Assembly (NCBI GenBank): GCA_041178345.1
Contig: JBEGVQ010000093.1
Span: 14,496-78,495 of the forward strand
DNA from: Acidobacteriota bacterium
GTDB lineage: Bacteria > Acidobacteriota > Vicinamibacteria > Vicinamibacterales > UBA2999
Length of the DNA stretch: 64,000 nucleotides
Direction: 5' to 3'
How positions within the stretch are numbered: the stretch's first letter is position 1; the number at the start of each line of letters is the position of its first letter. The translations under genes were made by a program, and so were the position numbers. Of the stretch, positions 6,254-53,311 are shown piece by piece. The notes beneath the pieces were generated by a model. That model saw only the letters and a program-made list of their open reading frames with translations. It searched no databases and was not told the DNA's origin.

Positions 6254-6601
6254 ATGGTTGCGATGATTCGAGTGGGTGTAGTGATGATGACGGTGATGTT
6301 CGGCTTGGCGGCGACCGTGTCGGCGCAGGCCGCGGCCGTGGAGAGAGGTGCGGCGGTCTACGCCGCCCAGAAGTGTTCCATGTGCCACGCCCTGGATGGA
6401 AAGGGACCGGCCAAAGGCCCCCTTGACGGCGTTGGCTCGAAGCTTTCCGCCGCCGAGATCCGAGAGTGGATCGTCAACCCGGCGGAGATGACCAAGAAGG
6501 CCAACGCCACGCGCAAACCAGCGATGCGCGCCTATCCCAACCTGCCGAAGGAAGACCTCGACGCCCTGGTGGCGTTCATGGTTTCAAAGAAGAAGGGTTA
6601 G
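6254..6601 (+). CDS. monoheme class I c-type cytochrome
   Basis: Signal peptide, CSMCH heme site, distal Met in PAMRAYP. GAGGT Shine-Dalgarno before ATG 6254. Confidence 0.88.
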
Positions 6602-6607: not shown

Positions 6608-6946
6608 ATGACCATCATCGGCCGCATCGCTTTGTTTGCCGGGGTCGCGCTGGTCGTGCCGGTCGTGACTGCCGCGGGGCAGACCCTGGAGCGGGGCGCG
6701 GCGGTGTTTGCCGCGCAGAAGTGCTCCCTTTGTCACGCCCTCGACGGCAAGGGCAATGCCAAGGGTCCACTGGACGCTATCGGCTCCAAGCTAAAGGCCG
6801 AGGAGATACGCAGTTGGATCGTCACACCGGCCGAGATGACCGCCAAGGTCAAGGCCGAGCGTAAACCGGCGATGAAGGCGTTCCCCAATCTGGCGAAAGA
6901 CGAGCTTGACGCGCTCGTCGCTTTCCTCGCCGCGAAGAAAAAATAG
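6608..6946 (+). CDS. monoheme class I c-type cytochrome, tandem paralogue of the previous gene
   Basis: CSLCH and PAMKAFP. About 70 percent identical by eye to the 6254..6601 product. Confidence 0.9.
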   Translation: MTIIGRIALFAGVALVVPVVTAAGQTLERGAAVFAAQKCSLCHALDGKGNAKGPLDAIGSKLKAEEIRSWIVTPAEMTAKVKAERKPAMKAFPNLAKDELDALVAFLAAKKK

Positions 6947-6961
6947 CCGTCCGGGACCGAT

Positions 6962-8314: not shown

Positions 8315-8378
8315 GAAGTTGCAGGGCGAATGTCGACCAGTGCACTTGCAGTGACCGTTCGAGAGAAGAGAGGATGAC

Positions 8379-9401: not shown

Positions 9402-9413
9402 CGGAGGCCAATC

Positions 9414-11606
9414 ATGCGAAACAGAATATGGATGGCGGCGGCCCTGACCCTGGCGATGACCGGGTCGGCGGTCGCACAGAACCCGCCGACGCTTCCCGCT
9501 CTGACCGATCCGGTCGACGTGGCGCGCAGCCAGACGACCGGGAAGGTCTACGGCTCGATTGACTTTGGCGGCCGCATTACGCAGGTCGACGGCGACGAAG
9601 CGCGGTTCCAGCGCTACCGCGACCTGCGCGGCGGCATTTACGGCACCAACATGCTGCTCGGGCGCCGGACCGACGACTGGAACTTCGAAGTCCAGGGCTG
9701 GAACGCCGGGTATCGCGATCAGCGCTACCTGCTCAACTTCCAGCGGGTCGGCCGCCTCACGGCGAGCTTCCTGTGGGATCAGATACCGATGTTCATCAGC
9801 CGCGACACGCGGACCCTGTACACGCAGACCGCGCCGGGCGTGTTCCGCATCGAGGATGCGATCCAGCAGGAGATTCAAGCGGGCGCCCGCAACCTGCGCA
9901 ACTTCGAAAGCCAGGCGGTACGCTTCGACATGAAGACGGAGCGGCAGATCGGCCAGGCCGACGTCAAGTTCGCGTTCGACCGCTCCACCGACATCACGCT
10001 GCTGGTACGCAACACCACCCGCGATGGCGCCATCCCGTTTGGCGGTACTTTCGGATTCAACAACGCCGTCGAACTGCCGGTGCCGGTCGACTGGCGCCAC
10101 ACCGAGCTGCAGTCGGCACTCGAGTGGGGCAACGACACCGGCATGCTGCGCATCGGCTGGGACGGTTCGACCTTCGACAACAACGTCGAGAGCGTGACCT
10201 GGGACAACCCCCTGCGCTTCGGTCCCGACGCGGCCGGTCAGCCGTCGCAGGGCCGCATGTCGCTCTGGCCCGGCAACACCCTGACCTACCTGCACGGCAC
10301 CGGCGCCGTCAGCCTGCCGGCCCGCACCCGTCTGACTGCCTACGTCGCGTTGGGACAGGGCCGCAGCAACGAAGAACTGCTGCCGTTCACCATCAACACG
10401 GCGATTGCACCGATTGCGCTGGCGCGTTCGACCGCGCTGGCCGAAAACCAGATGACGATCGCGCAGTTCACGCTGGCGTCGCGGCCGTCGCGGGTGGTGT
10501 CCGTCAACGCCAAGTACCGCTATTCCAACGTCGACGTCCAGACGCCGGTCTTCGATCGGCCGCTGGGAGATGTGGCCTACGACACGACCTTCAGGCCAGC
10601 CGCGGCCGCGTCATCCGAGTACCACTCGGTCAAGCGCGCGACTTTCGACGCCGACGCGGCGTTCCAGCTGGTGCCGACCACCTCGCTTCGGGTCGGCTAC
10701 AGCCATCTCGCCTCTGACTACACCTATCGGATCTGGGAGCAGACCGCCGAGGACGTGTTCCGGGTCTCGCTCGACACGACCGGTAACCAGTACTTCATGT
10801 TCCGCGGCGTTTACGAGAACCGCACGCGCGAAGGCGAGCAGTTCGACGCCCACGTGCTGGCAGAGGTCGGCGAGCTGGCCGACATGCGCCACTACGATGT
10901 CGCCAACCGCGATCGGCAGCGGTTCACGCTGATCGCCAACGTCATGCCCGGCGGCATCTTCGGGCTGACCGCGTCGGCCGGTGTCGGCCGCGACGAGTAT
11001 CGCGACAGCGGCGCGGGCCTGCAGTCGTTCGACTCGGATCAGTACTCGGCGGGCTTCTCCGTGTCGCCCGACGACCGCTACAACCTGACCGCCAGCTACG
11101 GGTGGGAACGCTACGAGTCGCTGCAGCTGTCGCGCGGCGCCAACAACGCCGCAGACCAGGCCAACCCGCTGCGCAACTGGACCACCAACTACACCGGCAA
11201 GGTCAACTTCCTCGAGGCCGGGTTCGACATCGATGCGATCGAACGCACCGCGGTCCGGCTGTCGGCCGACTGGAACCGCTCGAACGACACCTATCTCTAC
11301 GGACTGGTCACCGGCTCGCCGCTGGTTGCGCCCGAGCAACTGCCGCCCGTGAAGAACGAGTTGCTGCGCGGCGAGATTGACGTGACTTACGAGCTGACCC
11401 GCAACCTGCGCTTCGGCGTGGCCTACTGGTACGACGACTACGACGTGCAGGACTTCGCGCTGGGGCCGACCACCTTGAGCGGCCTTGCCTTGCCGGCGGT
11501 CCAGGAGGGACAGCCGGTGGTCGCCACCAACGCGCTGCTGCTCGGTTACCTGTATCGGCCTTACACCGCCCATGCCGGTTTCGTGAAGTTCACCTACCTC
11601 TGGTAG
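9414..11606 (+). CDS. MtrB/PioB-family decaheme-associated outer-membrane beta-barrel protein
   Basis: 730 aa with a signal peptide. N-terminal ..ARFQRYRDLRGG.. block, alternating beta-strand pattern, aromatic C-terminus ..FVKFTYLW. Starts 12 nt after the decaheme gene. Confidence 0.8.
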   Translation: MRNRIWMAAALTLAMTGSAVAQNPPTLPALTDPVDVARSQTTGKVYGSIDFGGRITQVDGDEARFQRYRDLRGGIYGTNMLLGRRTDDWNFEVQGWNAGYRDQRYLLNFQRVGRLTASFLWDQIPMFISRDTRTLYTQTAPGVFRIEDAIQQEIQAGARNLRNFESQAVRFDMKTERQIGQADVKFAFDRSTDITLLVRNTTRDGAIPFGGTFGFNNAVELPVPVDWRHTELQSALEWGNDTGMLRIGWDGSTFDNNVESVTWDNPLRFGPDAAGQPSQGRMSLWPGNTLTYLHGTGAVSLPARTRLTAYVALGQGRSNEELLPFTINTAIAPIALARSTALAENQMTIAQFTLASRPSRVVSVNAKYRYSNVDVQTPVFDRPLGDVAYDTTFRPAAAASSEYHSVKRATFDADAAFQLVPTTSLRVGYSHLASDYTYRIWEQTAEDVFRVSLDTTGNQYFMFRGVYENRTREGEQFDAHVLAEVGELADMRHYDVANRDRQRFTLIANVMPGGIFGLTASAGVGRDEYRDSGAGLQSFDSDQYSAGFSVSPDDRYNLTASYGWERYESLQLSRGANNAADQANPLRNWTTNYTGKVNFLEAGFDIDAIERTAVRLSADWNRSNDTYLYGLVTGSPLVAPEQLPPVKNELLRGEIDVTYELTRNLRFGVAYWYDDYDVQDFALGPTTLSGLALPAVQEGQPVVATNALLLGYLYRPYTAHAGFVKFTYLW

Positions 11607-11637
11607 GTGGGCTCACAATCACCACAGGAGACATGCA

Positions 11638-12081
11638 GTGAACGAGGTACCCCGGCGACTGTTTCTTGACACAGTACTCGGACTTGGATTTGTGTCGACG
11701 GCCATCGCCATCCTCTATCCGGTTTGGCGTTACGTCATCCCACCGGCGTCGGCTGAACCGGCGACCGACAGCGTGGTTGCAGGCAAGGTGTCGGAATTCA
11801 GACCAAACTCGGGAGCGGTCCTGAAGTTCGGCACCAAGCCCGCGCTTCTGGTGCGGACCAGCGACGGCCAGTTCAAGGCTTTCAACGCCGTGTGCACGCA
11901 TCTCGACTGCACGGTGCAATACAAGTCGGACACCTCGCAGATCTGGTGCCCGTGTCACAACGGCTTCTACGACCTCTCCGGCGCGGTCGTGTCGGGCCCG
12001 CCGCCGCGCCCGCTCGAGAGCTTCCAGGTGAACCTGCGCGGCGAGCCCGGGCAGGAAGACGTCGTCATCTCACGCACGTGA
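11638..12081 (+). CDS. Rieske [2Fe-2S] subunit of a cytochrome bc-type complex
   Basis: RR motif (VPRRLFL) plus TM helix; [14 protein letters not shown] cluster boxes. Confidence 0.9.
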
Positions 12082-12100
12082 CCCAGGAGAAAGTGGCGCC

Positions 12101-13180
12101 GTGACCCAGCAGGTGTTGGCGTGGCTCGACGAGCGGCTCGACCTGAGCGCGCTACGCGCCTTTGTGGCCGAGAAGACCGTGCCGAAACATCGGCACAGCG
12201 TCTGGTACTACATGGGCGGCATCACCTTGTTCCTGGTGGGCGTCCAGGTGGCCACTGGCATCTTGCTGCTGCTCTACTACCGCCCCAGCGCGAGCGAGGC
12301 CTACGAGAGCGTCCAGTTCATCGTCAGCCAGGTGCAGTTTGGCTGGTTGATCCGCAACCTCCATGCCTGGTCGGCCAACCTGCTGATCCTGATGGCGTTC
12401 GTGCACCTGTTCAGCACGTTCTTCCTGCGCGCCTACCGCAAGCCGCGCGAACTGACCTGGGTGACCGGTGTCCTGTTGCTCTTCATCATGCTGGCTTTCG
12501 GCTTCAGCGGCTACCTGCTGCCGTGGAATGAGCTGGCGTTTTTCGCCACCAAGGTCGGCACCGGCAGCGCCGGCGCCGTCCCGGTGGTCGGCGACTTCAT
12601 CGTTCGCTTCCTGCGTGGTGGTGACGATGTGACCGGCGCGACGCTGACGCGGTTCTACGGCATCCACGTCGCCATCCTGCCCGCCATCACCACCGTGTTG
12701 CTCGGAGCGCACCTGCTGTTCATCCAGCGGCAGGGCATGAGCGTGCCCTTGAGCGTGGAGAAGCGGGAAAAGGCTGGCGAGAAGATCCCCCAGGAGCCGT
12801 TCTTCCCAAACTATGTCCTGCACGACGTGATGTGGTGGTACGTCGCGCTGGCAGTGCTCGCCGCGCTGTCGCTGTTCCTGCCGTGGGAGTTGGGCACGAA
12901 AGCGGATGCGTTTGCGTCGGTGCCGGCGGGCATTCGCCCCGAGTGGTATTTCCTCGCCATGTTCCAGACGCTGAAGCTGATCCCCAGCCACGTGATGGGA
13001 CTCGAAGGCGAGATGCTGGGCGTGCTCGGCTTCAGTGTCGCAGCCGGGCTGCTGCTGGTGATGCCGTTTCTCGATCGCCACGCGGCCGACGGCCGGCCTA
13101 GCAAACTGATCACCGCCGCGGGAATCCTCGCGGTCATTTACCTGGTCGTGTTCACCATATATGGCTACCTGGCTGCGTAA
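12101..13180 (+). CDS. cytochrome b subunit (b6 plus subunit IV-like fusion)
   Basis: Typical N-terminus ..[20 protein letters not shown].., heme-ligand His pairs in TM helices, PEWYFL motif. Confidence 0.92.
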
Positions 13181-14429
13181 CCTCACCTTCGTCGTGGCTG
13201 TGGTGCTGGCGCTGGCGGCGCCGGCCGCGGCCCAGCCCGCCCAGACTTCGGGATGCGAGACGTGCCACAAGGAGCATCCGCAACCGGCGCTGTCCACGCC
13301 GGCCCGCGACTTCTTGGCCACCGATGTCCATCGCGAGCGCGGCTTTACGTGCGTCGATTGCCACGGCGGGAACCCGAACGAAACCGACCAGGTGCGAGCC
13401 AAGGCGCCCGCCACCGGGTTCAAGGGCAAGCCCTCCCCCCAAGGGGTGACGGCCGTCTGCGCCCGGTGCCACAGCGACGCCGCGTTCATGCGCAAGTACG
13501 CGCCCAAGCAGCGGGTCGATCAGGAAGCCGAGTACGCGACCAGCGTGCACGGGCAGCAACTGGCCAAGGGCGACACCAAGGTCGCGACCTGCATCAGTTG
13601 CCATGGCGCGCACGGCGTGCGCCTGGTCAGCGATGCCAAGTCGCCGGTGTATCCGGTCAACGTCGCGGCGACCTGCACCACGTGCCACGCCGACACCGAG
13701 CGCATGAAGGGCTACAAACTGCCCGACGGATCGCCGCTGCCCACCGACCAGCGCGTCAAGTACGAGAAGAGCGTGCACTACACCGCCATGACGCAGCGCA
13801 GCGACTTGTCAGCGCCAACCTGCAACGACTGCCATGGCAACCACGGCGCCGCCCCACCGGGCGTCGGCGCCGTCACCAACGTCTGCGGCACCTGCCACGG
13901 CGTGTTCGCGACCAAGTTTGCGCTGAGCACCCATCGCCAGATCTTCGACCGTGGCTGCGTCGAGTGCCACAGCAACCACGAGATCATTGAGCCGACCGAC
14001 GCGATGCTCGGCACCGACAAGTCCAGCATGTGCATCACCTGCCACAGCGACGGCGACAACGGCTTCAAGGCCGCCGCCGGCATGCGGGCAGAGATCGACA
14101 AGCTGAAGGCGGCGATCGACCGCTCGCACGCGCTGGTGTCCAGCGCGGAGAACGCCGGCATGGCGATGGACGAGCAGAGCCTGGCGTTGCGTGAGGCGGC
14201 CAACCACCTGACCCTCGCCCGGACCGAGATGCACGCCTTCGAGCCCAAGGCGGTCACGACGGTCCTCGAAGCGGGCCTGGGTATCACCGCCAAGGTGGAT
14301 GCCGAGGGGCAAGCCGCGCTGGAAGAAGTGTCGTTCCGCAAGACCGGCCTGGCGGTGTCGCTCGGCGCCATTCTGCTGGTGGTGGTCGCGCTGTGGCTGA
14401 AGATTCGCAGCCTCAGGGCGACCGATTGA
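13161..14429 (+). CDS. nonaheme c-type cytochrome with a C-terminal membrane anchor
   Basis: Nine CxxCH motifs, signal peptide, C-terminal TM ([17 protein letters not shown]). Overlaps the cyt b gene by 20 nt. Confidence 0.85.
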
Positions 14430-17444: not shown

Positions 17445-18653
17445 TCACGACTCGCGTGACGCGCGGACCTCCACCAACGCGCCGTCCACCACCCGGTCAT
17501 TGGGGTGGACCACCACCTGCGCGCCCGCCTCGAGGCCGGATTGAATCTCGGCCTCTTCGGCGTTGCGCTGGCCGACCGCGACCGTGACGCGGCGAATCCG
17601 ATCACCGTCCACCACGAACACCGCCCACTGGTCGCCCTGCCGCACCAGCGCGCTGGTCGGCACCTTTACCACGTCGGCCGCCTCCCAGATCACGATCCGC
17701 ACTTCCACGCGGTAGCCATCGCCCAGTGCGTTCCAGGCTCCGGCGGGGTCCTCGAAGTCCATCACCACGTTGACCCGCTGCTCTTCGACACCGAGCGCAG
17801 AGATCTTCGTGAAGCCCGACGGCTCCACTCGCCGCACCGTCGCCGTCAGCACCCGGTCGCCGCCCCACTGCTCGATGCGGACCTTCGCGCCGGGTTTCAC
17901 GCGCACCGCGTCGGTCGACAACAGGTCCGACACGATCTCGAGGTCTTCGTCAGGGTTGCCGATCTCGAGCAGCGGCTCGCCGGCCGCGACCACGCTCTCG
18001 CTCTCGCGCAGGCGCTTCAGCACGACGCCGTCGGCCGGCGCGGTGACCGTCAGGACGCGGCCGCTGGCCTCCAGGGTCGGCGCCATCAGCCGCGCGGTGG
18101 CCTGGTCGAACTGCGAGCGGGCCCCGGCGACGGCGAACTCAGCCGCGCGCACGGCTTCTTCGGCGGCGTTGGCGTTGGTTTCGGCTGCGTCGACGGCCTG
18201 CCGGGTCGTCAGCTGCGCGGCCGCCAGGTCGCGCTGGCGCCCGAGGTCGGCGCGCGCCAGGCCGGCCGCGGCCGTGGCCCGGCGCAGCTCGGCCTCGGCG
18301 CGGCCCAGGGCGGCGCGCGCGACGGCCACCGCGGCGTCGGCCTCGGCGCGGCTGCGCGCGTCCATCAACGCCGGCGCTTCGGCGCGAACCCGCGCCACCA
18401 CCGTCGTCCCACGGATAACGGGATCCCCCGTCTCGAGCTCGCTGCGCAGGACCCGTCCGGTCAGCGGCGCCGAGACGACGTAACGATGCCGGACCCGGGT
18501 CTCGCCCTCGTCATCCACGGTGACGGTCAACGGGCCGCGGGTGCTGGGCATGACGTCGACCGGCACCGGCGCCGGCCAGATCGCGACCGCCACCACGGCG
18601 CCGACGACCAGCACAACGAGCAACCAACGCCAATAACGGCTCATGGCGATCAC
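17445..18653 (-). CDS. efflux periplasmic adaptor subunit (HlyD/MacA-like)
   Basis: N-terminal TM helix, long Ala/Arg-rich coiled-coil hairpin, C-terminal beta-barrel part. Starts 2 nt downstream of the permease gene. Confidence 0.85.
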   Translation of the reverse strand: MIAMSRYWRWLLVVLVVGAVVAVAIWPAPVPVDVMPSTRGPLTVTVDDEGETRVRHRYVVSAPLTGRVLRSELETGDPVIRGTTVVARVRAEAPALMDARSRAEADAAVAVARAALGRAEAELRRATAAAGLARADLGRQRDLAAAQLTTRQAVDAAETNANAAEEAVRAAEFAVAGARSQFDQATARLMAPTLEASGRVLTVTAPADGVVLKRLRESESVVAAGEPLLEIGNPDEDLEIVSDLLSTDAVRVKPGAKVRIEQWGGDRVLTATVRRVEPSGFTKISALGVEEQRVNVVMDFEDPAGAWNALGDGYRVEVRIVIWEAADVVKVPTSALVRQGDQWAVFVVDGDRIRRVTVAVGQRNAEEAEIQSGLEAGAQVVVHPNDRVVDGALVEVRASRES

Positions 18654-18654
18654 C

Positions 18655-21029
18655 TTACTCCCTCGACTTCAAGACCGCGACCAGATCGAGCCGATCCAGC
18701 CGCCGCCGCACGGCCAGCGCCGAGAGCGCCGCCGCGCCGATGATGGTCAGCCAGCCCCACGCCACGGTGGCCGGGGTCACGATGAACGGGATGCGGAACA
18801 CCTCGTTCTGGAACAGGGTCATGATGAACAGGCCGAGCCCGTAACCGATCAGCGTGCCGCACGGCAGCGACACCAGCACCAGGATCGCCAGCTCGCCGAG
18901 CAGGATCGACGAGATCTCGCCGCGCGTGAATCCGAGCACGCGCAGGCTGGCCAGCTCGCGCTCCCGTTCCGACAGCGAGATCCGGGCCGCGTTGTAGACC
19001 ACGCCGATGGCGATGATCGCGGCGAAGATCACGTTGATGCCGATGGTCAGGTTCATGTTCTGCGCCATCACGTCGCGGAAGTTGCGCAGCGCCGTCTCGC
19101 GAATCGCGACCCCGGCCACCGACGGCGTTAACTTCAGTTTCGCGTAGAGCGGCTCGAGCTGCGCCGGGTCGACCTGGAGATAGGCGCCCGACACCGTGCC
19201 GCCCTCGCGCATCAGCCGCCCGAGCGCGGCAATGTCCAGGTAGGCCTGCAGGCCCATGATGTCGTCGATGACGCCGGCCACCCGCACCTGCCGCACCGGC
19301 CGGCGCCCTTCGAGCACTTCGACCTGCACCAGGTCGCCGGGCTCGAGGTCCAGGACCGTCGCCAGCGCGATCGACAGCACCATGCCCTCGGGAGGCAGCG
19401 TCCGCGGCCGGCCTTGCTGATCGACGACGCGATTGAGGTCGGGGTCGGGATTGAGCCCGGTCAGCGCCAGGGTCCGCGAACGCGGGCCGGCCCTGAGCCG
19501 CGCCGGCACCATCCGCATGGGCTCAACCGACATCACGCCGGGCAGTCCCGCGACGGCATGCATGGCCGCCGACGACCGCGGCTCGACGAAGCTGACCGTC
19601 ACGTCCTGCCGCATGCCGTCGTTGAACTGCCGCGCGATCAGCATCTCAATGGCATCGATGAAGCCAAAGCCGATCAGCAGGATGGCGCCGCCGAAGGCAA
19701 TCCCGATCACCGACGCGAACGCGCGCAAGGGCTGGCGCTCGAGGCTGCGCAGCACCATGCGCGCGCCCTGCGGCAACAGGCGCTGAATGCGGACCGTCTC
19801 GATCACGCTGGCGCGATAGCGGGCCGGCGACTCGGGCCGCATCGCCTCGGCCGGCGGCACCTTCACCGCCCGCCTCACCGCCGTGACCGAGCCAATGACC
19901 GCCGAAACCAGCGCCAGGGCCAGGGCGGTCAGCGCTACTTCGGCCGACAGCCGGTAGTCCAGTGACGGGAAGCGGAAGTACAGGTTGTAGAGCTCGATCA
20001 TCTGCGAGCCCAGCCAGGCGCCGACGATCACGCCGGTCACGGCCCCGAGCAACGCGATGGCGAGGGCCCACTTGAAGTAGTGCCACGCCAGCTGGCGGTT
20101 CGAGTAGCCGAGCGCCTTGAGCGCGGCCAGTTGCGGCCGCTGCAACGCCAGCGCCCGCGCCAGCGCCACGTTGAGCACGAACGCCGCCACCGCCAGGAAG
20201 ATCGCCGGGATGATGAACCCGAACGTGCTCAACTGCGCCAGTTCGTTGTCGAGCGTCCACGCTGATTGCTGCAGCCGCCGCGGCACCGCGCCCAGGCCGC
20301 CGAACGGCTCGAGCGCGCGGTCGAGGCCGGCGATGGCTTCGTCGGCCGAGGCGCCCGGCATCAGCCGCAGGCTGACGTCGTTGAAGCCGCCCTCCATGTC
20401 GAACGCGCTCGCCAGCGCCCGCCGCTCCATCCACAGCAGCCCGAAACGGCGGTTGTCGGGAATCATCTCGCCGGGACGGATGCTGAAGACGTACTCCGGC
20501 GACAGCGCCACGCCGACGATGGTCAGCCGCCTCCGCCGGCCGTTGATGATGGCGGTGACCGGGTCGCCCGGCGCCATGCCGTTGGCCTCGGTGAAGACCT
20601 CGCTCGCCAGCACCTCGTCGGGCCGCCCGGGTTCGGGCCAGCGCCCCGACCGCAGGAACACGTCGTTCAGCAGCGGCCGCCCGCGCGACGGCACCGAGAT
20701 CAGCCGGCCGGTCGCCGGCTCGAGCAGGCCCGGCACGTCGAGCGTCACGTCCGCGACGACGCGGGTGTCGAGGACGGCGACGCCGGGGATCGCCCGCAGG
20801 TCCGCCTCGAGACTGGTCGGCGCCCGCTTGAGCATGGCGAAGACATCGGCAAACCGCTGCCGCTCGTAGTACGTGTCGACCGTCCGCTGCAGGGAATCGA
20901 AGTTCGACAGGTAGGTGACAAACATGACCACGCCGGCGGCCATGACCGCGCCGATCGCAAGCGCCTGGCTGCGCATCTCCCACAGATCGCGCAGCAGCTT
21001 GCGATCGAGCGCGGCGATCGGCAGGCGGC

Positions 21030-21036
<7 letters not shown>
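18655..21036 (-). CDS. ABC transporter permease with two FtsX/MacB-type domains
   Basis: Start set at GTG 21036, overlapping the ATPase stop (GTGGTAG). Reads ..[20 protein letters not shown].., then large periplasmic loops and 4-TM bundles twice. Confidence 0.85.
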
Positions 21037-21755
<719 letters not shown>

Positions 21756-21764
21756 GGCAGCCGA

Positions 21765-23201
21765 TTATGGCTTCTTGTGCACGTGGCCGGATGGTTTTCC
21801 GTCGCCGACCAGGACCGTGCCCATCAACCCGCCCTCGGCGTGATCGAGGATGTGGCAGTGGATCATCCACTCCCCCGGCCGCTCGTCGAACGTCACCAGC
21901 AACCGCACCGTCGTCTTCATCGGCACGTTGACCGTGTCCTTCAGCGCCAGCGGCCGCACCGGCTGGCCCTGGTCGTCGATGACCTGGAAGAAATATCCGT
22001 GAAGATGGTACGGGTGGTCCCAGTCGCTGTCGTTCTTGACGGTCCAGAGCTGCGTTTCCCCGAGCCGGGCCCGAAAGGGCTCCGCCTTCCAGAAGGGCAC
22101 GCCGTTGATGCGGAACTCGGACTTGCCATTCTCCATGGGCGGCAGCGTCAGTACCATCTCCACCGGTGTCGCGCCTTCGACCGTTGGCACCGGGAGGGCG
22201 CGCTTCACGCGCACCGGCGGCGCGGTCACCGCCGGCTCCTTCGTGAACTCGATCGTCAACACGTCCTCGACGCCGCGATACTGCACGCTGCCGTATCCGC
22301 GGTTGTAGAGCATCGCGCGCAAGGTCAGCGGTGTGCCCGCCGTGCCCTTCGGCGTGACGATCACGTCGAAGCGCTCGCCTGGCGTGATCAGCAGGATGTC
22401 GGTCGTCACCGGCCGCTCCTGCAGCCCGCCGTCGGCGCCGATGACCGTGAACATCTGGCCGTCGAGATCGAGATAGAAGAACCGGCTCCTGGCGGCGTTG
22501 ACGATGCGCCAGCGTTGCGGAGCGCCGGGACGGGCGCGCAGCACCGGGTGGGTGCGGCCGTTCACCAGCACGTAGTCGCCCTCGCGGCCAAACACCATGC
22601 CGGCCGAGCCGCCACTGTCGGCGGGCTCGAGCCGGCCCCCGGCGTCGAAGCCGATGTCGCTCAACACCAGCGTCACCTGGTCGGCCACGCCGACGCCGTC
22701 ATTGGGATCCTCGACGAGCAGCGCGCCGTAGAGGCCAAAGCCGACCTGCGCCGCGGACCTGACGTGCGGGTGATACCAGTAGAGTCCCGCGTCGCGCACG
22801 ATGAAGTCGTAGACGAACGACTCGCCCTGATTGACCTCAGGCTGCGAGATGCCGGGGACGCCGTCCATCTCGATCGGCACGCGCAGGCCATGCCAGTGAA
22901 CCGTGGTCGGCTCTCTCAGTTCGTTCTTGAAGTGCACGATCAGCCGATCGCCGATGCGCGTCTTGATGAGCGGCCCGGGCAACCCGCCGTCGTAGGTCCA
23001 CGCCTGCGCGCGTTTACCCGGAGCGACCTCGACCTCGGCCAGCCGGGCCGTCAGGGTGATCTCCACCACTTTCGGATCGGGATTGGTGTCAATCGACTCC
23101 TTGAGCTTGAGGCCCGCGTCCCAGCCGGGCGGCGCCATCGGCTGAGCCGCAGCCGATAAGGGCAGGAGAAGACACATTACGAGCAAGCTCAGCATCGCCA
23201 T
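21765..23201 (-). CDS. three-domain multicopper oxidase (CopA/CueO-like)
   Basis: HWHGLRVP, WYHPHV, HCHILDHAEGGLMG copper sites. Signal peptide from ATG 23201 (MAMLSLLVMCLLLPLSAAAQ). Confidence 0.9.
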   Translation of the reverse strand: MAMLSLLVMCLLLPLSAAAQPMAPPGWDAGLKLKESIDTNPDPKVVEITLTARLAEVEVAPGKRAQAWTYDGGLPGPLIKTRIGDRLIVHFKNELREPTTVHWHGLRVPIEMDGVPGISQPEVNQGESFVYDFIVRDAGLYWYHPHVRSAAQVGFGLYGALLVEDPNDGVGVADQVTLVLSDIGFDAGGRLEPADSGGSAGMVFGREGDYVLVNGRTHPVLRARPGAPQRWRIVNAARSRFFYLDLDGQMFTVIGADGGLQERPVTTDILLITPGERFDVIVTPKGTAGTPLTLRAMLYNRGYGSVQYRGVEDVLTIEFTKEPAVTAPPVRVKRALPVPTVEGATPVEMVLTLPPMENGKSEFRINGVPFWKAEPFRARLGETQLWTVKNDSDWDHPYHLHGYFFQVIDDQGQPVRPLALKDTVNVPMKTTVRLLVTFDERPGEWMIHCHILDHAEGGLMGTVLVGDGKPSGHVHKKP

Positions 23202-23377: not shown

Positions 23378-23944
23378 ATGGCCACCATGACGCAATCCGC
23401 AAGCGGAACCACGACGCAGTTCGTCAGGCGCTTCATGGGCGCGCTGGCTCTCGATCCGACAACGTTTGAAGACGTCGAGTCCGACCGCGCCGCGGGCGGC
23501 CAGGCCGCCCTCGTGGTGTTGCTGACGTGCCTGGCGGGCGGCTTCGCGGTCGCCGGCAGTTCGCAGCTGAACGTCACCATGTTCATCGCCGGCCTGACCG
23601 CGACGCTCGGCGCGTGGGTGGTGTGGGCGCTCCTGATTACCACCATCGGCACGCTGGTCCTTCCGGAGCCGGCCACCAGCAGCCGGCCGGCAGAGTTGTT
23701 GCGCACGATGGGGTTTGCCGCCGCGCCCGGTGTCTTCCTCGCCTTTGGCGCCATGCGGGCGGTCGCGCCCATTGTCGTGGCGCTGGCGACGCTCTGGGTG
23801 GTTGCCGCGACGGTGCTCGCCGTGCGGCAGGCGCTCGACTATCGCAGCCTCGCCAGGGCGGCGGTCGTGTGCGTCGCGGCCGGGCTGGTAGCGTTTGGCA
23901 TGGTCGCCGCCGTGGGCCTGATGTTCGCCAGGCCGGTCAGCTGA
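23378..23944 (+). CDS. Yip1-like polytopic membrane protein
   Basis: Start at ATG 23378 (AGGGAG Shine-Dalgarno). ..FMGALALDPTTFEDVE.. followed by five hydrophobic helices. Confidence 0.6.
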   Translation: MATMTQSASGTTTQFVRRFMGALALDPTTFEDVESDRAAGGQAALVVLLTCLAGGFAVAGSSQLNVTMFIAGLTATLGAWVVWALLITTIGTLVLPEPATSSRPAELLRTMGFAAAPGVFLAFGAMRAVAPIVVALATLWVVAATVLAVRQALDYRSLARAAVVCVAAGLVAFGMVAAVGLMFARPVS

Positions 23945-23986: not shown

Positions 23987-24472
23987 ATGCGAATCAAATA
24001 CACGGCGGCGGCCCTGGTGGGACTGGTGGTGGCAGGCTTCAGCCTGGTCGCGCTAGCTCAGCAGAAGCCGGCCGCGACAGCGAAGACCGCCACGGCAAAC
24101 TCGGTCGTGGTGTACAAGTCCCCGACTTGAGGGTGCTGCAGTGCCTGGATGAAGCATCTCCAGGCGCAAGGCTTCCAGGTGGAAGCCAACGACGTCAGTG
24201 ATCCTCAAGTGCAAGCGGTCGGCAAGCAGGCCGGCATGACCGACGAGTTGTCGTCGTGCCACGTGGCGAAAATCGGCGGCTACACCATCGTCGGCCACGT
24301 CCCGGCCGAAGACATCAAGCGGTTGCTGAAAGAGAAGCCGGCCATTGCCGGAATCTCGGCGCCCGGCATGCCGATGGGATCGCCCGGCATGGAGCAGGGC
24401 GGCATGAAGGAGTCGTACAACGTGATGGCGTTCACGAAGGACGGCAAGAAGTACGTCTTCGCGAAGCACTAA
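23987..24472 (+). CDS. DUF411/CopG-family periplasmic metal-binding protein interrupted by an in-frame TGA at codon 48 (candidate selenocysteine, or nonsense)
   Basis: Signal peptide MRIKYTAAALVGLVVAGFSLVALAQQ, then VVVYKSPT-TGA-GCCSAW.., SCHV, GMPMGSPGME. The TGA (24128..24130) replaces the first Cys of the family CxCC motif. The ORF track only sees the 3' part (24149..24472). Confidence 0.7.
24141..24167 (+). other. SECIS-like hairpin downstream of the in-frame TGA
   Basis: 9-bp stem GUGCCUGGA/UCCAGGCGC (one G-U pair), 9-nt loop UGAAGCAUC. The stem starts 10 nt after the TGA and the loop 19 nt after it. Confidence 0.4.
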
Positions 24473-24639: not shown

Positions 24640-24990
24640 ATGACGACGGCCCCAGGCACCATTCCGGCTTCCGAGGCGCTGCCGCTCGAGAGCCTCATCG
24701 CGTTGACCGCCGGCGGCATTGCCAGCCGCGTGCTGGCCAAGAACGGCGGCGGCAACCTGACGCTGTTTGCGTTTGATCGAGGGCAGGGGCTGAGCGAGCA
24801 CACGACGCCGTTCGACGCGCTCGTGATGGTGCTCGATGGCGAGCTGGCGCTCACCATTGGCGGCACGGCCGTCACCGCGACGCCCGGCACCATCGTCCGC
24901 ATGCCGGCGAACGTGCCGCACGCGGTCGAGGCGACGGTCGCGTCGCGCATGCTGCTGATCATGCTGCGGGAGCCAAAGCCCGCGGCCTAG
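24640..24990 (+). CDS. cupin domain protein
   Basis: Cupin_2 signature ..GLSEHTTPFDALVMVLDGELALTIGG..PANVPHAV.. Confidence 0.8.
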   Translation: MTTAPGTIPASEALPLESLIALTAGGIASRVLAKNGGGNLTLFAFDRGQGLSEHTTPFDALVMVLDGELALTIGGTAVTATPGTIVRMPANVPHAVEATVASRMLLIMLREPKPAA

Positions 24991-33706: not shown

Positions 33707-34218
33707 GCGATGACAAGAAACCAACCGATCGACGCGACTTTCTGCTCAAGCTAGGCGCCGGCGCGGGCGTGGCCGCCATCACCGTCCAGGCCGGGGCGTC
33801 GCTGCGCTCGCTCGTGCCGAACGTGTCGTACGACGCGCCGACCACCGTGAAGCTCGGTCCACCGTCCGACTTCCCCGATGGCCTCAAGTTCCTCCCGGAC
33901 GAACGCGTGCTCGTGTTCCGCGAAGGCAACACGTTCCACGCTATTTCGGCCGTCTGCACGCACCTCGGATGCACCGTCCGGGCGGAGGCGTTGGCTTCCC
34001 CCCAATCCGTCGACGCCGGCGGTGCCTCCATCCGCCTGACCCATCGCTTCCTCTGTCCGTGTCACGGCTCTGAATACAAGGGCGACGGCACCAACGTGTC
34101 CGGCCCCGCGCCGAAGCCGCTGGCCTGGTACCGCCTGCTGCTCGCGCCCGACGATGGGCAACTGGTGATTGACCTCGCGGACGAAGTGGGCCGCGACTTC
34201 CGCCTGACGGTGGGGTGA
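33703..34218 (+). CDS. Rieske [2Fe-2S] protein with a Tat signal
   Basis: DRRDFLLKLGAGAG Tat motif. CTHLGCTV..CPCHGSEY with an insertion between the boxes. Confidence 0.9.
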   Translation: MSDDKKPTDRRDFLLKLGAGAGVAAITVQAGASLRSLVPNVSYDAPTTVKLGPPSDFPDGLKFLPDERVLVFREGNTFHAISAVCTHLGCTVRAEALASPQSVDAGGASIRLTHRFLCPCHGSEYKGDGTNVSGPAPKPLAWYRLLLAPDDGQLVIDLADEVGRDFRLTVG

Positions 34219-35567
34219 CTGTGATGCGCCTGCCCTCCTTGACCCGCACCAAGCCCGAGGCTCCCAACGTGCATGCGGAGCCGCTGTGGAGTTTGCGCCC
34301 CCAGTCGGACCGTGAAGCCGGCGATGCGGTGGTGTCGAACTTCATGCTGCACTGGTTCCCCGCCAAGATCAGCAAGGCGTCGATGGCGTGGAACTACTCG
34401 TTCTGGCTCGGCACCATTTCCGGGGCGCTCTTCTTCCTGACGATTCTGTCGGGCCTGCCGCTGCTGTTTCTCTACGTGCCGTCGGTGGAGCGCGCCTACC
34501 AGTCGGTCAAGGACATCGAGTTCGTGATCACGTTCGGTTCGTGGATTCGCGCGGTGCACCGCATCTCGGCGCACCTGATGGTGATCGTCGTCGCCTTGCA
34601 CCTGGTCCGCGTGTTCCTGACCGGCGCCTACAAGAACGGCGTCGGCCGCGGGCAGCAGCGCGAAATCAACTGGGTGATCGGCGTCGTGATGTTCCTCACC
34701 ACGCTGTTCCTCTCGTTCACCGGTTACCTGCTGCCCTGGGACCAACTGGCCTTCTGGGCGGTTACGGTCGGCACCAACATCGCCTCCTCCATTCCCGCGA
34801 TTGGCCCGGCCGTCCGCGAACTGATGATCGGCGGCCGCAACATCGACCAGGCGACGCTGATCCGCTTCTACGTGTTGCACGTCGTCTTCCTGCCCGGCCT
34901 GCTGGCGGTGCTGTTCGCGTATCACATGTGGCGCGTGCGCAAGGACGGCGGCCTGGCCCGCGCCGACCACGAGACCGTGCTGGAAGAGCTGCGCACCACC
35001 GAGGTGGTGCCGACCAAGACCTACACCTTGCTGGGCGTCGCCCGCGGCACGGCGCCGACGGTGACGGCGCGGACGCTCGAGGCGGCCAACACCACCGTCA
35101 ACGCCGTGCCGGACCTGACGCGCCGCGCGCTGATTGCCGTCCTCGGCACCATTGCCGTCGTCAGCATCATGTCGGTGTTCATCGCCTCGCCGCTCGAGGA
35201 GCCGGCCAACGCGCTGATCACGCCCAACCCGGCGAAGGCGCCGTGGTACTTCCTGTGGCTCCAGGAAATCGTCACCGACACCACCATTCGGATCGGTTCG
35301 TTCACGCTGAACGGGGCGTTCGTGGGCGGCGTGATCCTGCCCGGGCTGCTGGTCGGACTCATGACCTTCTGGCCGTGGCTCGATCGTTCGTCCCATCTGG
35401 CGGCCGGCGTCTGGCTGCCGCGCGACCGCCGCCGGCAGAACATCGTGTTCCTGCTGATCGTGCTGTTCGTGCTGGTGCTGACGTTCGTCGGCATGGTCCT
35501 GCGCGGGCCGTATTGGTACTTCTACTGGCCGTGGGAGGCCTGGCCCGAGATTCCCGGAAGGATCTGA
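34215..35567 (+). CDS. cytochrome b subunit (long form, 450 aa)
   Basis: GTGA overlap with the Rieske stop. Typical b-type helices with His pairs; APWYFLWLQE motif. Confidence 0.9.
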   Translation: MTVMRLPSLTRTKPEAPNVHAEPLWSLRPQSDREAGDAVVSNFMLHWFPAKISKASMAWNYSFWLGTISGALFFLTILSGLPLLFLYVPSVERAYQSVKDIEFVITFGSWIRAVHRISAHLMVIVVALHLVRVFLTGAYKNGVGRGQQREINWVIGVVMFLTTLFLSFTGYLLPWDQLAFWAVTVGTNIASSIPAIGPAVRELMIGGRNIDQATLIRFYVLHVVFLPGLLAVLFAYHMWRVRKDGGLARADHETVLEELRTTEVVPTKTYTLLGVARGTAPTVTARTLEAANTTVNAVPDLTRRALIAVLGTIAVVSIMSVFIASPLEEPANALITPNPAKAPWYFLWLQEIVTDTTIRIGSFTLNGAFVGGVILPGLLVGLMTFWPWLDRSSHLAAGVWLPRDRRRQNIVFLLIVLFVLVLTFVGMVLRGPYWYFYWPWEAWPEIPGRI

Positions 35568-35568
35568 G

Positions 35569-36792
35569 ATGGAGAACCGCACCTCATCTCCGTATCCGCG
35601 GATCGACCGGTTGGTGCTGGCGCTCGTCGGCGTCACGCTGGTAATCGGCACCGCGCTGTTCATGTGGAGCGACCGCGCCCACGACTGGCGCTACTACCAG
35701 GCCGAGTTCCGGCGGATGGTGGCCGAGAAGTTTGGGGATGACAAGGCGGCGCTTCTCCCGTCGGGCGTGCGGCAGGTCTGGGCGGCCGAGCTGGCGCGCG
35801 CCGATCGCTGCATCACCTGCCACGAGGCGATCGCCTACAAGGGCTTCGAGGAGGCCGAGCATCCCTACCGCACGCATCCGCTCGAACCCCTGCAGCTTCA
35901 CCCGGTCGAAGCTTACGGCTGCACCTCGTGCCACGGCGGCCAGGGCTGGGCCATCGACACGGCGGCGGCGCACGGCGAGGTCGCGCACTGGGAGGAGCCG
36001 CTGCTGAGCCGGACCTTGGGCGAGGAATACACGCTCGCCGGCAACAAGAACGCGTTGATGCAGATGAACTGCAACACCTGCCACCGCTACGACCGCGAGA
36101 CCAAGGGCGCCGAGGCCATCAACCTGGCCAAGCGGCTGATCAACGACAAGGGCTGCCGGGCCTGTCACGTGATCAACGGGTTCGGCGGCACGATTGGCCC
36201 CGACCTCACGACCGTCGGCGAGAAGGCGCCCGAACAGTACGACATGAGCCGGTTGTCGGGCCAGCGCACCGCGTTTGCGTGGCACATGGCGCACTTCAAG
36301 GACCCGCGCGCGCTCAGCGAGGGCACCGTCATGCCGAACTTCAACTTCAGCACCGAACAGGCGCAGGCGCTGTCGATGCTGATGCTGTCGTGGCGGCGGC
36401 ACGAGGTGCCGGCGCGGTTTGTCTCGGGCGCGCCCCGCACGGACCCCCGCAGCGCCGAGGAGCTGAAGGCCGAGGCGGACATGCGGACCGGCCCTGGCGG
36501 GTGGTTCGTGCAGACCGGTTGTTTCGTGTGCCACTCGATCTCGGCGCTCGGGGTCAGGAGCCCGGCGCAGATCGGGCCCGACCTGTCGAATGCCGTCGAG
36601 GACGTGCAAAGCCGGTTCGGCGTGACGATCGACGCGTTCATCGCCAACCCCACCGGCACGATGAGCGTGGTGCTGTCGCGCCAGATCATCCTGACACCCG
36701 AGCAGAAGGAAGTGGCGATCCAGAAGTTGCGCGAGGCGTTTGCGGAGTACCAGCGCCAGCGTGAAACGGCCGCGGCCGCGATTTCCAAATAG
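35569..36792 (+). CDS. membrane-anchored pentaheme c-type cytochrome
   Basis: N-terminal TM helix. CITCH, CTSCH, CNTCH, CRACH, CFVCH. Starts 1 nt after the cyt b stop. Confidence 0.85.
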   Translation: MENRTSSPYPRIDRLVLALVGVTLVIGTALFMWSDRAHDWRYYQAEFRRMVAEKFGDDKAALLPSGVRQVWAAELARADRCITCHEAIAYKGFEEAEHPYRTHPLEPLQLHPVEAYGCTSCHGGQGWAIDTAAAHGEVAHWEEPLLSRTLGEEYTLAGNKNALMQMNCNTCHRYDRETKGAEAINLAKRLINDKGCRACHVINGFGGTIGPDLTTVGEKAPEQYDMSRLSGQRTAFAWHMAHFKDPRALSEGTVMPNFNFSTEQAQALSMLMLSWRRHEVPARFVSGAPRTDPRSAEELKAEADMRTGPGGWFVQTGCFVCHSISALGVRSPAQIGPDLSNAVEDVQSRFGVTIDAFIANPTGTMSVVLSRQIILTPEQKEVAIQKLREAFAEYQRQRETAAAAISK

Positions 36793-36807: not shown

Positions 36808-38661
36808 ATGGACCGAACGAATCGTGTGGCGTGGTCGAGGGCATCCGCCCTGTTGGTGCTGGCGCTCGTCGCCAGCCAGTGCACGCCGAGCCAGCCCGCC
36901 TCGCGGCGCGGCGGCAGCGGCGTGCAGTCGGACGCCGCCGTGGCGGCGCTCAAGACCTACGTGGCCCCGGGTGACCTCGACGAGTACTACATGTTCTCGT
37001 CGGGCGGGCATTCCGGCCAGATTTACGTCTACGGATTGCCCTCGATGCGGCACCTCTCGACCATCCCCGTCTACACCCCCTACCCGGCGACCGGCTACGG
37101 TTTCGATGATGACAGCAAGAAGATGCTGGGCGACCTGACGTGGGGTGACGCGCATCACCCGGCGCTGTCGGAAACCAAGGGCGACTACGACGGCCGCTGG
37201 CTGTTCATCAACGAGATGAACGGGCGCATTGCCCGCATCGATCTGCGCGACTTCAAGACCAAGCAGATCCTGGGGCCGGTGCCGAACCTGCATGGCAACC
37301 ACGCCTCGTCGTTCGTCACCCCGAACACCGAGTACGCGATGATGGCCACCCGCTTCTCCCGGCCCGTGCCGAACCGGGTCGTCGGCATCGACAAGTACGC
37401 GACCGAGTACAAGGGCATCATCGCCGGCGTCAAGATCGAACCGGCCTCGGGCGAGATGTCGCTGGCGTGGCAGATCCTGATGCCGCCGTTCGACTACGAC
37501 CTGGGCGACGCCGGCAAGCTGGCGTCCGACGGCTGGATGTTCTTCACCTCGTACAACACCGAGCGGGCCACCGGCAAGCTCGAGGTCACCGCCTCGCAAC
37601 GCGACCAGGACTACATTGCCGCGGTTGACTGGCGCGCCGCGGAGAAGGCGATCGCCGAGGGCAAGTTCGACACCATCGGCGGCGTCAAGGTGATCGACCC
37701 CAAGAAGGTGCCCGGCATCGTCTACCTGCTGCCCTGCGGCAAGTCGCCGCACGGCGTCGACGTCTCGCCCGACGGCAAGTGGATCATCGGCTCGGGCAAG
37801 CTCCAGGGCGTCACCACCGCGTTCAACTTCGAGAAGATCCAGACCGCGATTCGCAACAAGGACTTCATCGGCGAAGAAGACGGCATCCCGGTGCTGAAGT
37901 ACGAGTCGATCAAGGACGCCGAGGTCGCGGTCGGCCTGGGCCCGCTGCACACGCAGTTCGGCCCCGATGGCTGGGCCTACACCTCGCTGTTCGTCGACAG
38001 CGCGATCGCGAAATGGAAGCTCGGCACGTGGGAAGTCGTCGACAAGGCGCCGATGTCGTACTCGATCGGCCACCTGGCCGCGGCCGAAGGCGACACCGTC
38101 AGCCCTGACGGCAACTACCTGGTCGGCCTCAACAAGCTGTCGCACGGCCGCCACCTGAGCGTCGGGCCGTCGCAGCCCGAGTCGTCACAGCTGCTCGACA
38201 TCACCGAAGAGAAGATGAAGCTGCTCTACGACGCCTTCACCGAACCCGAGCCGCACTACGCGCAGATCATCAAGGCCGACAAGATCAAGGCCATCGAGGT
38301 CTATCCGAAAGAGGAAAACAAGCACCCCATGGCGGTGTGGGATCTCAAGGACGCCGGGGTGACCCGCAATGGCAAGAACGTGCTGGTCAAGATGATCGCC
38401 GTGCGCTCGACGCTGACGCCGACCTCGTTCGAGGTGACCGCGGGCGACCAGGTCACGGTGGCCGTGACCAACATCGAGCAGACCACCGACGAACTGCACG
38501 GCTTCGGGCTGCTCGACTACAACATCAACCTGGTCATCGACCCGGGTGAAACCAAGACCGTCACCTTCACCGCGAAGAAGAGCGGCGTGTTCGCCTACTA
38601 CTGCACCAACTTCTGTTCGGCGCTTCACCAGGAGATGCAGGGCTACATGATCGTCAAGTGA
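36808..38661 (+). CDS. nosZ: nitrous oxide reductase, clade II (Sec-type) form
   Basis: GDAHHP CuZ region, beta-propeller body, C-terminal CuA site YYCTNFCSALHQEMQGYM. The N-terminal signal has no twin-arginine motif. nosB follows. Confidence 0.95.
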   Translation: MDRTNRVAWSRASALLVLALVASQCTPSQPASRRGGSGVQSDAAVAALKTYVAPGDLDEYYMFSSGGHSGQIYVYGLPSMRHLSTIPVYTPYPATGYGFDDDSKKMLGDLTWGDAHHPALSETKGDYDGRWLFINEMNGRIARIDLRDFKTKQILGPVPNLHGNHASSFVTPNTEYAMMATRFSRPVPNRVVGIDKYATEYKGIIAGVKIEPASGEMSLAWQILMPPFDYDLGDAGKLASDGWMFFTSYNTERATGKLEVTASQRDQDYIAAVDWRAAEKAIAEGKFDTIGGVKVIDPKKVPGIVYLLPCGKSPHGVDVSPDGKWIIGSGKLQGVTTAFNFEKIQTAIRNKDFIGEEDGIPVLKYESIKDAEVAVGLGPLHTQFGPDGWAYTSLFVDSAIAKWKLGTWEVVDKAPMSYSIGHLAAAEGDTVSPDGNYLVGLNKLSHGRHLSVGPSQPESSQLLDITEEKMKLLYDAFTEPEPHYAQIIKADKIKAIEVYPKEENKHPMAVWDLKDAGVTRNGKNVLVKMIAVRSTLTPTSFEVTAGDQVTVAVTNIEQTTDELHGFGLLDYNINLVIDPGETKTVTFTAKKSGVFAYYCTNFCSALHQEMQGYMIVK

Positions 38662-52566: not shown

Positions 52567-52599
52567 CGGGCCGCACGATCAGTATAGGCTTCAGGGTGC

Positions 52600-53310: not shown

Positions 53311-53311
53311 C

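Follow-up and report, generated by a model that had tools for sequence, protein, structure and literature searches.

We analysed a 64,000-nucleotide (nt) stretch of the genome of an Acidobacteriota bacterium of the order Vicinamibacterales (contig JBEGVQ010000093.1, positions 14,496 to 78,495 of the forward strand), here called the window, and describe a gene of the CopG/DUF411 family whose reading frame contains a UGA at the first cysteine position of its CxCC motif. We propose that this codon is read as selenocysteine (Sec). An earlier reading of the letters alone, hereafter the original prediction, had placed the ATG at 23987, the TGA at 24128-24130 as codon 48 and the end of the frame at 24472, in each case correctly. 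The features of the gene, in window coordinates, are as follows.

23987..24472, + strand: CopG/DUF411 precursor frame, read by translation as 161 codons plus a TAA stop at 24470-24472, with UGA as codon 48
23987..24058, + strand: predicted Sec-type (secretory) signal peptide MRIKYTAAALVGLVVAGFSLVALA, read from the sequence, with probable cleavage after ALA (between ALA and QQ, then KP)
24128..24130, + strand: in-frame UGA, proposed selenocysteine codon 48, between VVVYKSPT and GCCSAWMKHL
24128..24139, + strand: U-G-C-C motif (U48-G-C50-C51), equivalent to the CxCC of CopG and aligned to the CGCC of 6WIS
24141..24167, + strand: hairpin within the coding sequence resembling a selenocysteine insertion sequence (SECIS), with a 9-bp stem (one G.U) and a 9-nt loop
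24149..24472, + strand: 107-amino-acid open reading frame (ORF) of the public annotation (MEY4635487.1), the sole product of ordinary ORF finding
24257..24262, + strand: Cys91-His92, invariant in 212 Sec-form domains and in the Cys forms
24293..24304, + strand: G-H-V-P, residues 103-106; in the 212 Sec-form domains, conservation is complete at G103, H104 and P106 and 98% at V105
24362..24391, + strand: PGMPMGSPGM, residues 126-135; conservation among Sec forms is complete at M128 and 99% at M135

The signal peptide MRIKYTAAALVGLVVAGFSLVALA has a basic n-region, a hydrophobic core and the cleavage site between ALA and QQ. Between the UGA and the TAA lie 113 codons in the same frame, which include the motifs SCH(V), GHVP and PGMPMGSPGM. 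NCBI annotates only the 107-amino-acid product (MEY4635487.1, MDP2052048.1 and others), and JGI gene calls list a 47-amino-acid ORF and a separate 107-amino-acid ORF; both sets of records agree with the expectation, raised in the original prediction, that annotation would give a truncated ORF lacking the signal peptide and CxCC. UGA serves as an ordinary stop in 24 of the 51 predicted genes of the window, and we therefore reject a global reassignment of the codon.

When its stop is replaced by Cys, the protein matches the Pfam family DUF411 (PF04214) with E=3.5e-25 and 87.9 bits, against a cutoff of 27. Its residues 40-160 match Pseudomonas aeruginosa CopG (PDB 6WIS/6WJE) with E=5e-28 over 118 of 126 residues, with the CGCC, CH, GHVP and GMPxGSPGM motifs aligned and 45% identity to this structurally characterised protein. 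P0004, the Cys homologue closest to the window protein (78% identity), was modelled with AF2; the model has a mean pLDDT of 86 and places a strand at residues 29-34, the CGCC at 38-41 and a helix at 39-50. A Foldseek search with this model returned CopG chains as the best matches (TM 0.91, rmsd 1.5 Å), with thioredoxins and glutaredoxins as distant next matches. By sequence, the window gene encodes a clear CopG homologue that is predicted to be exported. Each residue of the CopG metal site has its counterpart (U48-G-C50-C51, C91-H92, H104, M128 and M135), and the sole departure is the first Cys, which appears as UGA. Because the P0004 model puts the motif between strand 1 and the N terminus of helix 1 of the thioredoxin fold, U-G-C-C is, on this model, also a UxxC motif. 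Most known bacterial selenoproteins carry Sec at this UxxC position of the thioredoxin fold. The glutaredoxin-like Uxx-star model (NF041212) matches only the strand-CxxC-helix segment, at 20.6 bits against a cutoff of 66, and the protein is not a member of that family.

Recurrence of the UGA and constraint on the frame

To find further copies we scanned DNA with the TGA-specific pattern Y-K-x-P-x-TGA-G-C-C-x-x-W. The pattern matched at least 120 loci in metagenomes from soil, sediment, groundwater and ocean, and at least 119 GTDB species-representative genomes, all of them metagenome-assembled genomes (MAGs); together, the two scans place the TGA codon in at least 239 homologous, independent loci, a recurrence that greatly exceeds what chance would give. 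Among the matches listed, most TGA-form genomes belong to Vicinamibacterales, other Acidobacteriota and Gemmatimonadota, and the remainder include Chloroflexota (Anaerolineae, Caldilineales), Rokubacteria/Methylomirabilota, delta- and beta-proteobacteria, Myxococcota, Tectomicrobia, Nitrospinaceae, Binatia and Verrucomicrobia, about ten phyla altogether. Carriers of the Sec form include the MAG JBBQSP01, which is that of the nearest relative of the window, and the closed Vicinamibacterales chromosomes OY759970.1, OZ220736.1, OY760734.1, OZ253576.1, OY760136.1 and OZ244976.1. One Vicinamibacterales contig (CBDBMZ010000003.1) carries two Sec-form DUF411 genes (L177 and L205), about 4.3 Mb apart.

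The 107-amino-acid product forms a cluster, at 90% identity, of 44 distinct sequences from NCBI, JGI, ENA and Logan assemblies, which are named ‘hypothetical protein’ or ‘DUF411 domain-containing protein’ and come from Acidobacteriota MAGs. All 12 of the contigs inspected, each from a different sample, have a 47-codon ORF, the TGA and then a 107-codon ORF in the same frame, and the identical TGA is present in independently assembled contigs from more than 10 samples and runs. The original prediction had allowed for a sequencing error or a recent nonsense mutation. The former is excluded because the same TGA appears in many independent assemblies, and the latter because 212 distinct TGA-form proteins occur in about ten phyla. 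The same evidence, from contigs of more than 10 samples and from at least 239 divergent loci, already refutes the reading of the TGA as a sequencing or assembly artefact or a private mutation of one genome, the probability of which we regard as practically nil.

Frames downstream of the UGA are almost always intact. Of 252 matches, 226 have at least 100 codons downstream before a stop and 23 are cut by the end of a contig or locus, and the full frame is thus kept in 226 of the 229 uncut copies. The remaining three TGA-form copies (L095, L107 and L120) have a frameshift or premature stop downstream; these are either true pseudogenes or assembly errors. The 212 distinct Sec-form domains share pairwise identities of 37-99% (median, 55%), and C91, H92, G103, H104, P106, G127, M128, P129, G131, P133 and G134 are invariant in all 212. 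The search pattern placed no requirement on any of these residues.

Purifying selection is evident on both sides of the UGA. In comparisons of the window gene with those of three relatives (L242, L001 and L174), the ratio of nonsynonymous to synonymous substitution rates (dN/dS) was 0.09-0.22 for codons 1-47 and 0.05-0.19 for codons 49-161. A hydrophobic, signal-like segment is present in 225 of 228 unique Sec-form upstream ORFs. The 47-residue upstream part consists of a signal peptide and one strand and ends exactly at the column of the active-site Cys; it would not persist under such constraint if translation ended there. A twin-arginine-like motif occurs in 46 of the 228 Sec-form signal peptides (for example, in L016, L019, L028 and L036), which suggests, on the basis of the motif, that these 46 proteins may be exported through twin-arginine translocation (Tat) as already folded and possibly metal-loaded selenoproteins.

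Cys and TGA forms exchange at a single column. Full-length Cys homologues carry YK[ST]PTCGCC at the position of the UGA, in agreement with the original prediction that the TGA stands where homologues have the first Cys of CxCC. Ranked by identity to the window protein, Sec forms come first (98%, 94% and 88%), followed by Cys forms at 78% and a further Sec form at 77%; the nearest relative, L242, is a Vicinamibacterales MAG with 98% identity across the domain. When 212 Sec domains and 129 Cys domains, among which relatives of the window protein are over-represented in the Cys set, are placed in one neighbour-joining tree, at least 17 changes between the Sec and Cys states are needed. Such repeated switching between Sec and Cys at one Cys column is what usually marks a selenoprotein family. 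No Cys-form paralogues were found beside Sec forms among the loci examined. The comparison of orthologues that had been suggested for TGA/Cys pairs thus showed the two forms interleaved, with the hairpin in the TGA forms and not in the Cys forms.

The hairpin downstream of the UGA

In the window gene, the stem is formed by GUGCCUGGA (24141-49), which pairs with UCCAGGCGC (24159-67) around the loop UGAAGCAUC (24150-58). A spacer of 10 nt (24131-24140) separates the UGA from the stem, and the loop begins 19 nt after the UGA with a G at its second position. The hairpin alone has a predicted free energy (ΔG) of -14.4 kcal/mol; a 53-nt fold reaches -24.4 kcal/mol (z=-2.5), a stability matched by 1 of 200 shuffles. 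The bacterial SECIS (bSECIS) model specifies a loop of 3-9 nt, an upper stem of 4-16 bp, a G in the first two loop positions, a spacing of 16-37 nt between the UGA and the loop, and a ΔG of at most -7.5 kcal/mol (PMC13188914). The window hairpin falls within all four published constraints of this model, and the geometry given in the original prediction (9-bp stem, 9-nt loop, 19 nt, G at position 2) was correct and lies within them. The stem-loop, about 10 nt after the UGA, has the same geometry as the SECIS of the Escherichia coli fdhF type and the consensus bSECIS, with an unrelated sequence. It differs from these in that CopG clades use differing pairing registers and in that Rfam holds no matching model; a search of the window against Rfam gave no match.

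Across the family we examined 230 unique 63-nt sequences after the UGA, with nucleotides counted from the U of the UGA. The minimum-free-energy structure of 218 of the 230 contains a hairpin with a loop that starts at nt 19-40 (mode, 25), and 178 of these 218 have a G in the first two loop positions; G occurs at nt 25 in 78% of all 230. As a control we used 15 Cys-form sequences, consisting of 4 from close acidobacterial homologues, 10 from plasmids and 1 from a viral contig, the only Cys-form locus that the viral contig collection yielded. An uninterrupted helix of at least 7 bp is present in 76% of the 230 Sec forms versus 1 of 15 Cys forms (Mann-Whitney p=2e-7). A strict four-criteria SECIS test was passed by 50% of Sec forms, in comparison with 0 of 15 Cys forms and 10% of shuffles, and 79% of Sec forms combine a helix of at least 6 bp with a loop G.

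The hairpin is built in part by the codons of the family-wide residues W-V/I-x-H-L, of which UGG-GUG pairs with CAC-CUG. In a comparison with synonymous-codon shuffles, the native sequences stood at -16.7 kcal/mol versus -14.0 kcal/mol for the shuffled ones; 28% of genes reached p<=0.05, and 77% fell below their own null mean. This effect is moderate because the W-V/I-x-H-L residues themselves form part of the hairpin, which also explains why weak hairpin remnants persist in close Cys homologues. Among 224 unique 48-nt sequences, with all registers pooled, covariation reached z=6-8 for the pairs 22-30, 18-34, 17-35 and 18-36, with compensatory types GC, AU and GU at 22-30 and GC, CG and UG at 18-34; these z-scores ignore relatedness, and we treat them as supportive only. 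By pairing register (i+j), 142 sequences fall at 52 and have a GNU triloop, 33 (the window among them) fall at 54, 22 at 48 and about 19 at 44-46. The register differs by clade (loci L013-L251, nt 13-42 after the UGA), with the loop at the canonical distance, about 17-21 nt from the UGA, throughout.

Genomic setting and predicted copper function

The window contains several genes connected with copper and with electron transfer, listed here with the immediate neighbours of the DUF411 gene.

4223-6388, - strand: E1-E2 (P-type) ATPase, candidate copper gene
6608-14429: module resembling an extracellular electron-transfer system, with an MtrB/PioB outer-membrane porin at 9414-11606, cytochrome c, a NapC/NirT-like protein, two multihaem cytochromes, a Rieske protein and cytochrome b
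17445-23138, - strand: HlyD, MacB-type ABC exporter and multicopper oxidase, in this gene order
21765..23138, - strand: multicopper oxidase (Pfam Cu-oxidase_3, Cu-oxidase and Cu-oxidase_2; gene call in L003), divergent from the DUF411 gene and one gene away
23378..23944, + strand: Yip1-domain membrane protein, directly upstream, ending 42 nt before the ATG
24640..24990, + strand: Cupin_2 gene, directly downstream; the order is kept in L001-L006
34215-42047: nitrous-oxide reductase cluster, about 12 kb from the DUF411 gene, with cytochrome b (34215-35567), cytochrome c (35569-36792), nosZ with nos_propeller and cupredoxin domains (36808-38661), nosD (39368-40747) and an ABC ATPase (40744-41643)
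45481-46845, - strand: second multicopper oxidase, candidate copper gene

The Yip1 and DUF411 genes are probably in one operon. The multicopper oxidase that the original prediction had noted beside the gene is indeed present, one gene away. Elsewhere in the family, plasmid Cys forms adjoin copA, copD, silA/silP or multicopper oxidase genes. The closest Cys-form loci (L253, L255 and the P0013 contig) have a context of EF-hand, helix-turn-helix-cupin regulator, B3_4, radical SAM and CHAD genes, which differs from the oxidase-Yip1-DUF411-cupin order of the window. A cluster of esterase, esterase/S9, unknown and GCS2 genes lies at 51787-55461 of the window, about 27 kb from the Sec-form gene; in the relative L254 (6493-10007), the esterase-GCS2 cluster directly adjoins a Cys-form DUF411 gene.

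CopG is described as a periplasmic, thioredoxin-like protein that binds a Cu4 cluster through its CxCC and two Met residues and contributes to anaerobic copper resistance; oxidation of Cu(I) and delivery of copper to multicopper oxidases are named as possible activities (PMC7558416). The window protein shares with CopG (6WIS/6WJE) its family, fold and predicted export, and a multicopper oxidase gene lies nearby. The two differ at the first Cys of CxCC, which in the window gene is encoded by UGA and followed by the SECIS-like hairpin, and at two residues that are changed in the window subclade (T93V and E102V). Most Sec-form loci, in addition, lie outside cop, cus, sil or pco clusters. By analogy with CopG we favour copper-cluster binding for the Sec forms as well, a role suggested by the conserved ligands and by homology to CopG rather than by gene context.

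Proposed decoding of the UGA and its significance

We consider it very probable, from the sequence evidence, that Sec is inserted at codon 48 of this exported CopG-family protein by the canonical route, directed by SelB and a SECIS. The selenoprotein reading as a whole is strongly supported, though not proven, and the proposal of a candidate selenoprotein in the original prediction has gained from the Sec/Cys column, the constrained and intact frame and the hairpin specific to Sec forms, the kinds of comparative evidence by which selenoprotein genes are ordinarily recognised in computational work. Several observations weigh against it. No selA, selB, selD or tRNA-Sec gene was found in the 64-kb window or in its same-contig extensions of about 20 kb, and no tRNA-Sec and no SelD or SelA motifs were found in 1.5 Mb of flanks of related loci: ARAGORN found five tRNAs in the window and 251 related loci, none of them tRNA-Sec, and no tRNA gene in the window itself; Pfam annotation of the window contains no SelA, SelB or SelD domains; and a six-frame search of the 1.5 Mb of related flanks with regular expressions for SelD and SelA motifs gave 0 matches. 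Because genes for the Sec machinery are usually unlinked to selenoprotein genes, their lack near the locus amounts only to absence of evidence. A search for ORFs split by a TGA and apparently coding on both sides revealed no other selenoprotein gene in the window or flanks; the window gave one antisense false positive, and across all loci only DUF411 recurred with the U aligned. Much of the hairpin is encoded by W-V-x-H-L, with modest selection at synonymous sites (mean z -0.95), and only half of the Sec forms pass the strict SECIS test. With n=15, the Cys control is small, and most of it was drawn from distant Proteobacteria; the covariation statistics are uncorrected for relatedness. Two near-invariant positions are altered in the window subclade: Val stands at residues 93 (24263-24265) and 102 (24290-24292) in the window protein, L242 and L001, where Thr and Glu, as in SCHT and EGHVP, are found in 98% and 97% of the 212 Sec forms and in 98% and 100% of the 129 Cys forms. 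L174, which is 88% identical, retains Thr93 and Glu102, and because dN/dS remains low the pair of substitutions has the appearance of a change particular to this lineage, close to the metal site, and not of decay. Finally, the Sec forms have no conserved neighbourhood, of copper genes or otherwise: among the 131 neighbours of 35 diverse Sec-form genes, even the most frequent Pfam family appears at most three times.

If the UGA were a true stop, the locus would be split or decayed, and its only product would be a cytoplasmic C-terminal fragment of 107 amino acids that starts at the ATG at 24149. This is exactly what the NCBI and JGI gene callers report; 165 of 228 unique Sec forms have a possible start codon (ATG, GTG or TTG) in frame no more than 12 codons past the TGA, and Sec machinery is lacking from the window and the related loci examined. 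However, a nearby ATG is found in only 35 of the 228, and a fragment that begins beyond the motif would be without strand 1, the CxCC site and the means of export. The 47 codons before the TGA are as constrained as the domain and encode a signal-like segment in 225 of 228 copies, and the frame stays open in 226 of the 229 uncut copies (212 sequences, about ten phyla), with always TGA and never TAA or TAG at the Cys column. We therefore regard a true stop as very improbable and reject a pseudogene, given the upstream constraint, the intact frames and the lack of both active site and export signal in the fragment. Readthrough without Sec, through near-cognate decoding as Trp or Cys or a programmed leaky stop aided by the hairpin, would place an ordinary residue at position 48; the conserved frame and the hairpin would fit stimulated readthrough too, and no Sec machinery was found in the window or the related loci examined. 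Yet the stop falls exactly on a redox or metal Cys, at the UxxC position of a thioredoxin fold that is a typical site of Sec, and the hairpin has a geometry specific to SECIS elements, with a G in the first two loop positions and a spacing of 17-21 nt in most. A single mutation (TGA to TGC or TGT), moreover, would yield Cys, so that an inefficient leaky stop kept in hundreds of lineages would make no sense if Cys were the product, and the phyla concerned include documented users of Sec; we give this explanation very little credence. At the level of phyla, selenoproteins are on record for Acidobacteria and Chloroflexi (PMC1794560 Table 2), and a list of Sec users includes an acidobacterial isolate (PMC12013277).

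A separate question is whether a Sec-containing protein would handle copper at all, or would instead act as a general periplasmic UxxC selenol/thiol oxidoreductase or as a binder of soft metals of the Hg/Ag type. The diverse Sec-form loci without a common copper-gene neighbourhood would suit such a role, as would the U-G-C-C that doubles as UxxC on a thioredoxin fold, the weak Uxx-star match far below its cutoff (20.6 bits against 66), and T93V and E102V in the window subclade. Against it, the residues conserved in Cys-form CopG (CxCC, CH, GHVP and GMPxGSPGM) are invariant in Sec forms, and the similarity to the structurally characterised CopG is close (45% identity, rmsd 1.5 Å). A multicopper oxidase lies one gene away, with the P-type ATPase, the second oxidase and nosZ/nosD in the region, and the plasmid Cys forms stand beside copA, copD, silA/silP and oxidase genes. 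On balance we hold a role unconnected with copper to be unlikely.

From these data we infer Sec insertion itself, SelB binding, copper binding and a physiological role. A ribosome that arrives at the UGA at 24128 would meet the hairpin at 24141-24167, which, as a bacterial SECIS, would recruit SelB-GTP-Sec-tRNA(Sec) so that Sec is inserted, and translation would proceed through the remaining domain. The signal peptide would then direct export, and the mature thioredoxin-fold protein would have U-G-C-C in place of the C-x-C-C of CopG. By homology to CopG, this motif and the conserved Met residues may bind multinuclear copper, or carry out Cu(I)/Cu(II) redox chemistry or copper transfer, an activity that may serve the nearby multicopper oxidase; the selenolate would substitute for one thiolate ligand or nucleophile. 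It is possible, although doubtful, that the selenolate of Sec48 directly bridges copper atoms as a ligand within a multinuclear cluster. If true, this would be the first natural Se-Cu cluster protein, and its wide occurrence in phyla that dominate soil and sediment (Vicinamibacterales, Gemmatimonadota and Anaerolineae) would tie the handling of copper in the periplasm to the supply of selenium, with a possible role in the maturation of multicopper oxidases or N2O reductase, the genes for which are within the same 64-kb window.

Sec-form CopG/DUF411 is apparently an undescribed selenoprotein family, or a Sec-containing subfamily of a known family, with a known decoding mechanism. A May 2026 review compiled 119 prokaryotic selenoprotein families and subfamilies, in which PF04214, DUF411, CopG, UGCC and UxCC have no entry and the copper-related entries are CopZ-family forms and the SO_0444 transporter (PMC13188914). 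NCBIfam release 20 has no selenoprotein model for DUF411 (the best match being Uxx-star, far below its cutoff), and a full-text search found no description of DUF411/CopG as a selenoprotein within the literature searched. The original prediction took DUF411 to be undescribed as a selenoprotein family, in accord with this catalogue and with NCBIfam. With the UxxC selenoproteins of the thioredoxin fold (thioredoxin, glutaredoxin, DsbA-like, DsbG-like and thiol:disulfide interchange proteins), the Sec forms share Sec at the N-terminal position of the motif, a SECIS in the coding sequence after the UGA, Cys homologues that are far commoner, repeated Sec/Cys switches and, in some, export (PMC13188914). 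They differ in belonging to another family and in the extra Cys of U-G-C-C, and the motif of the solved homologue binds a metal cluster instead of acting as a simple redox pair. The replacement by Sec of a Cys that binds soft metals is also predicted for several proteins linked to heavy-metal handling, namely CopZ-family (2Fe-2S)-binding forms, the SO_0444 Cu/Zn efflux transporter, E1-E2 cation ATPase, MerT-like, SaoB/SaoC/SaoL and HgcA/HgcB (PMC13188914). None of these, however, is a DUF411/CopG protein, and none is a multinuclear copper-cluster protein.

Every public copy of the gene is apparently mis-annotated, as a 47-amino-acid ORF and a protein of about 107 amino acids without signal peptide or active site, and a family-specific model would correct hundreds of records. 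The differences in pairing register, together with at least 17 switches between Sec and Cys, make the family a good case for the study of SECIS evolution inside a constrained coding sequence. The finding would add a widespread family to the bacterial selenoproteome, present in at least 119 species-level genomes of about ten phyla, nearly all of them uncultured, in which selenium use has hardly been charted. It would also place selenium in the metal site of a copper-homeostasis protein, a natural substitution of Se for S that would be open to bioinorganic study.

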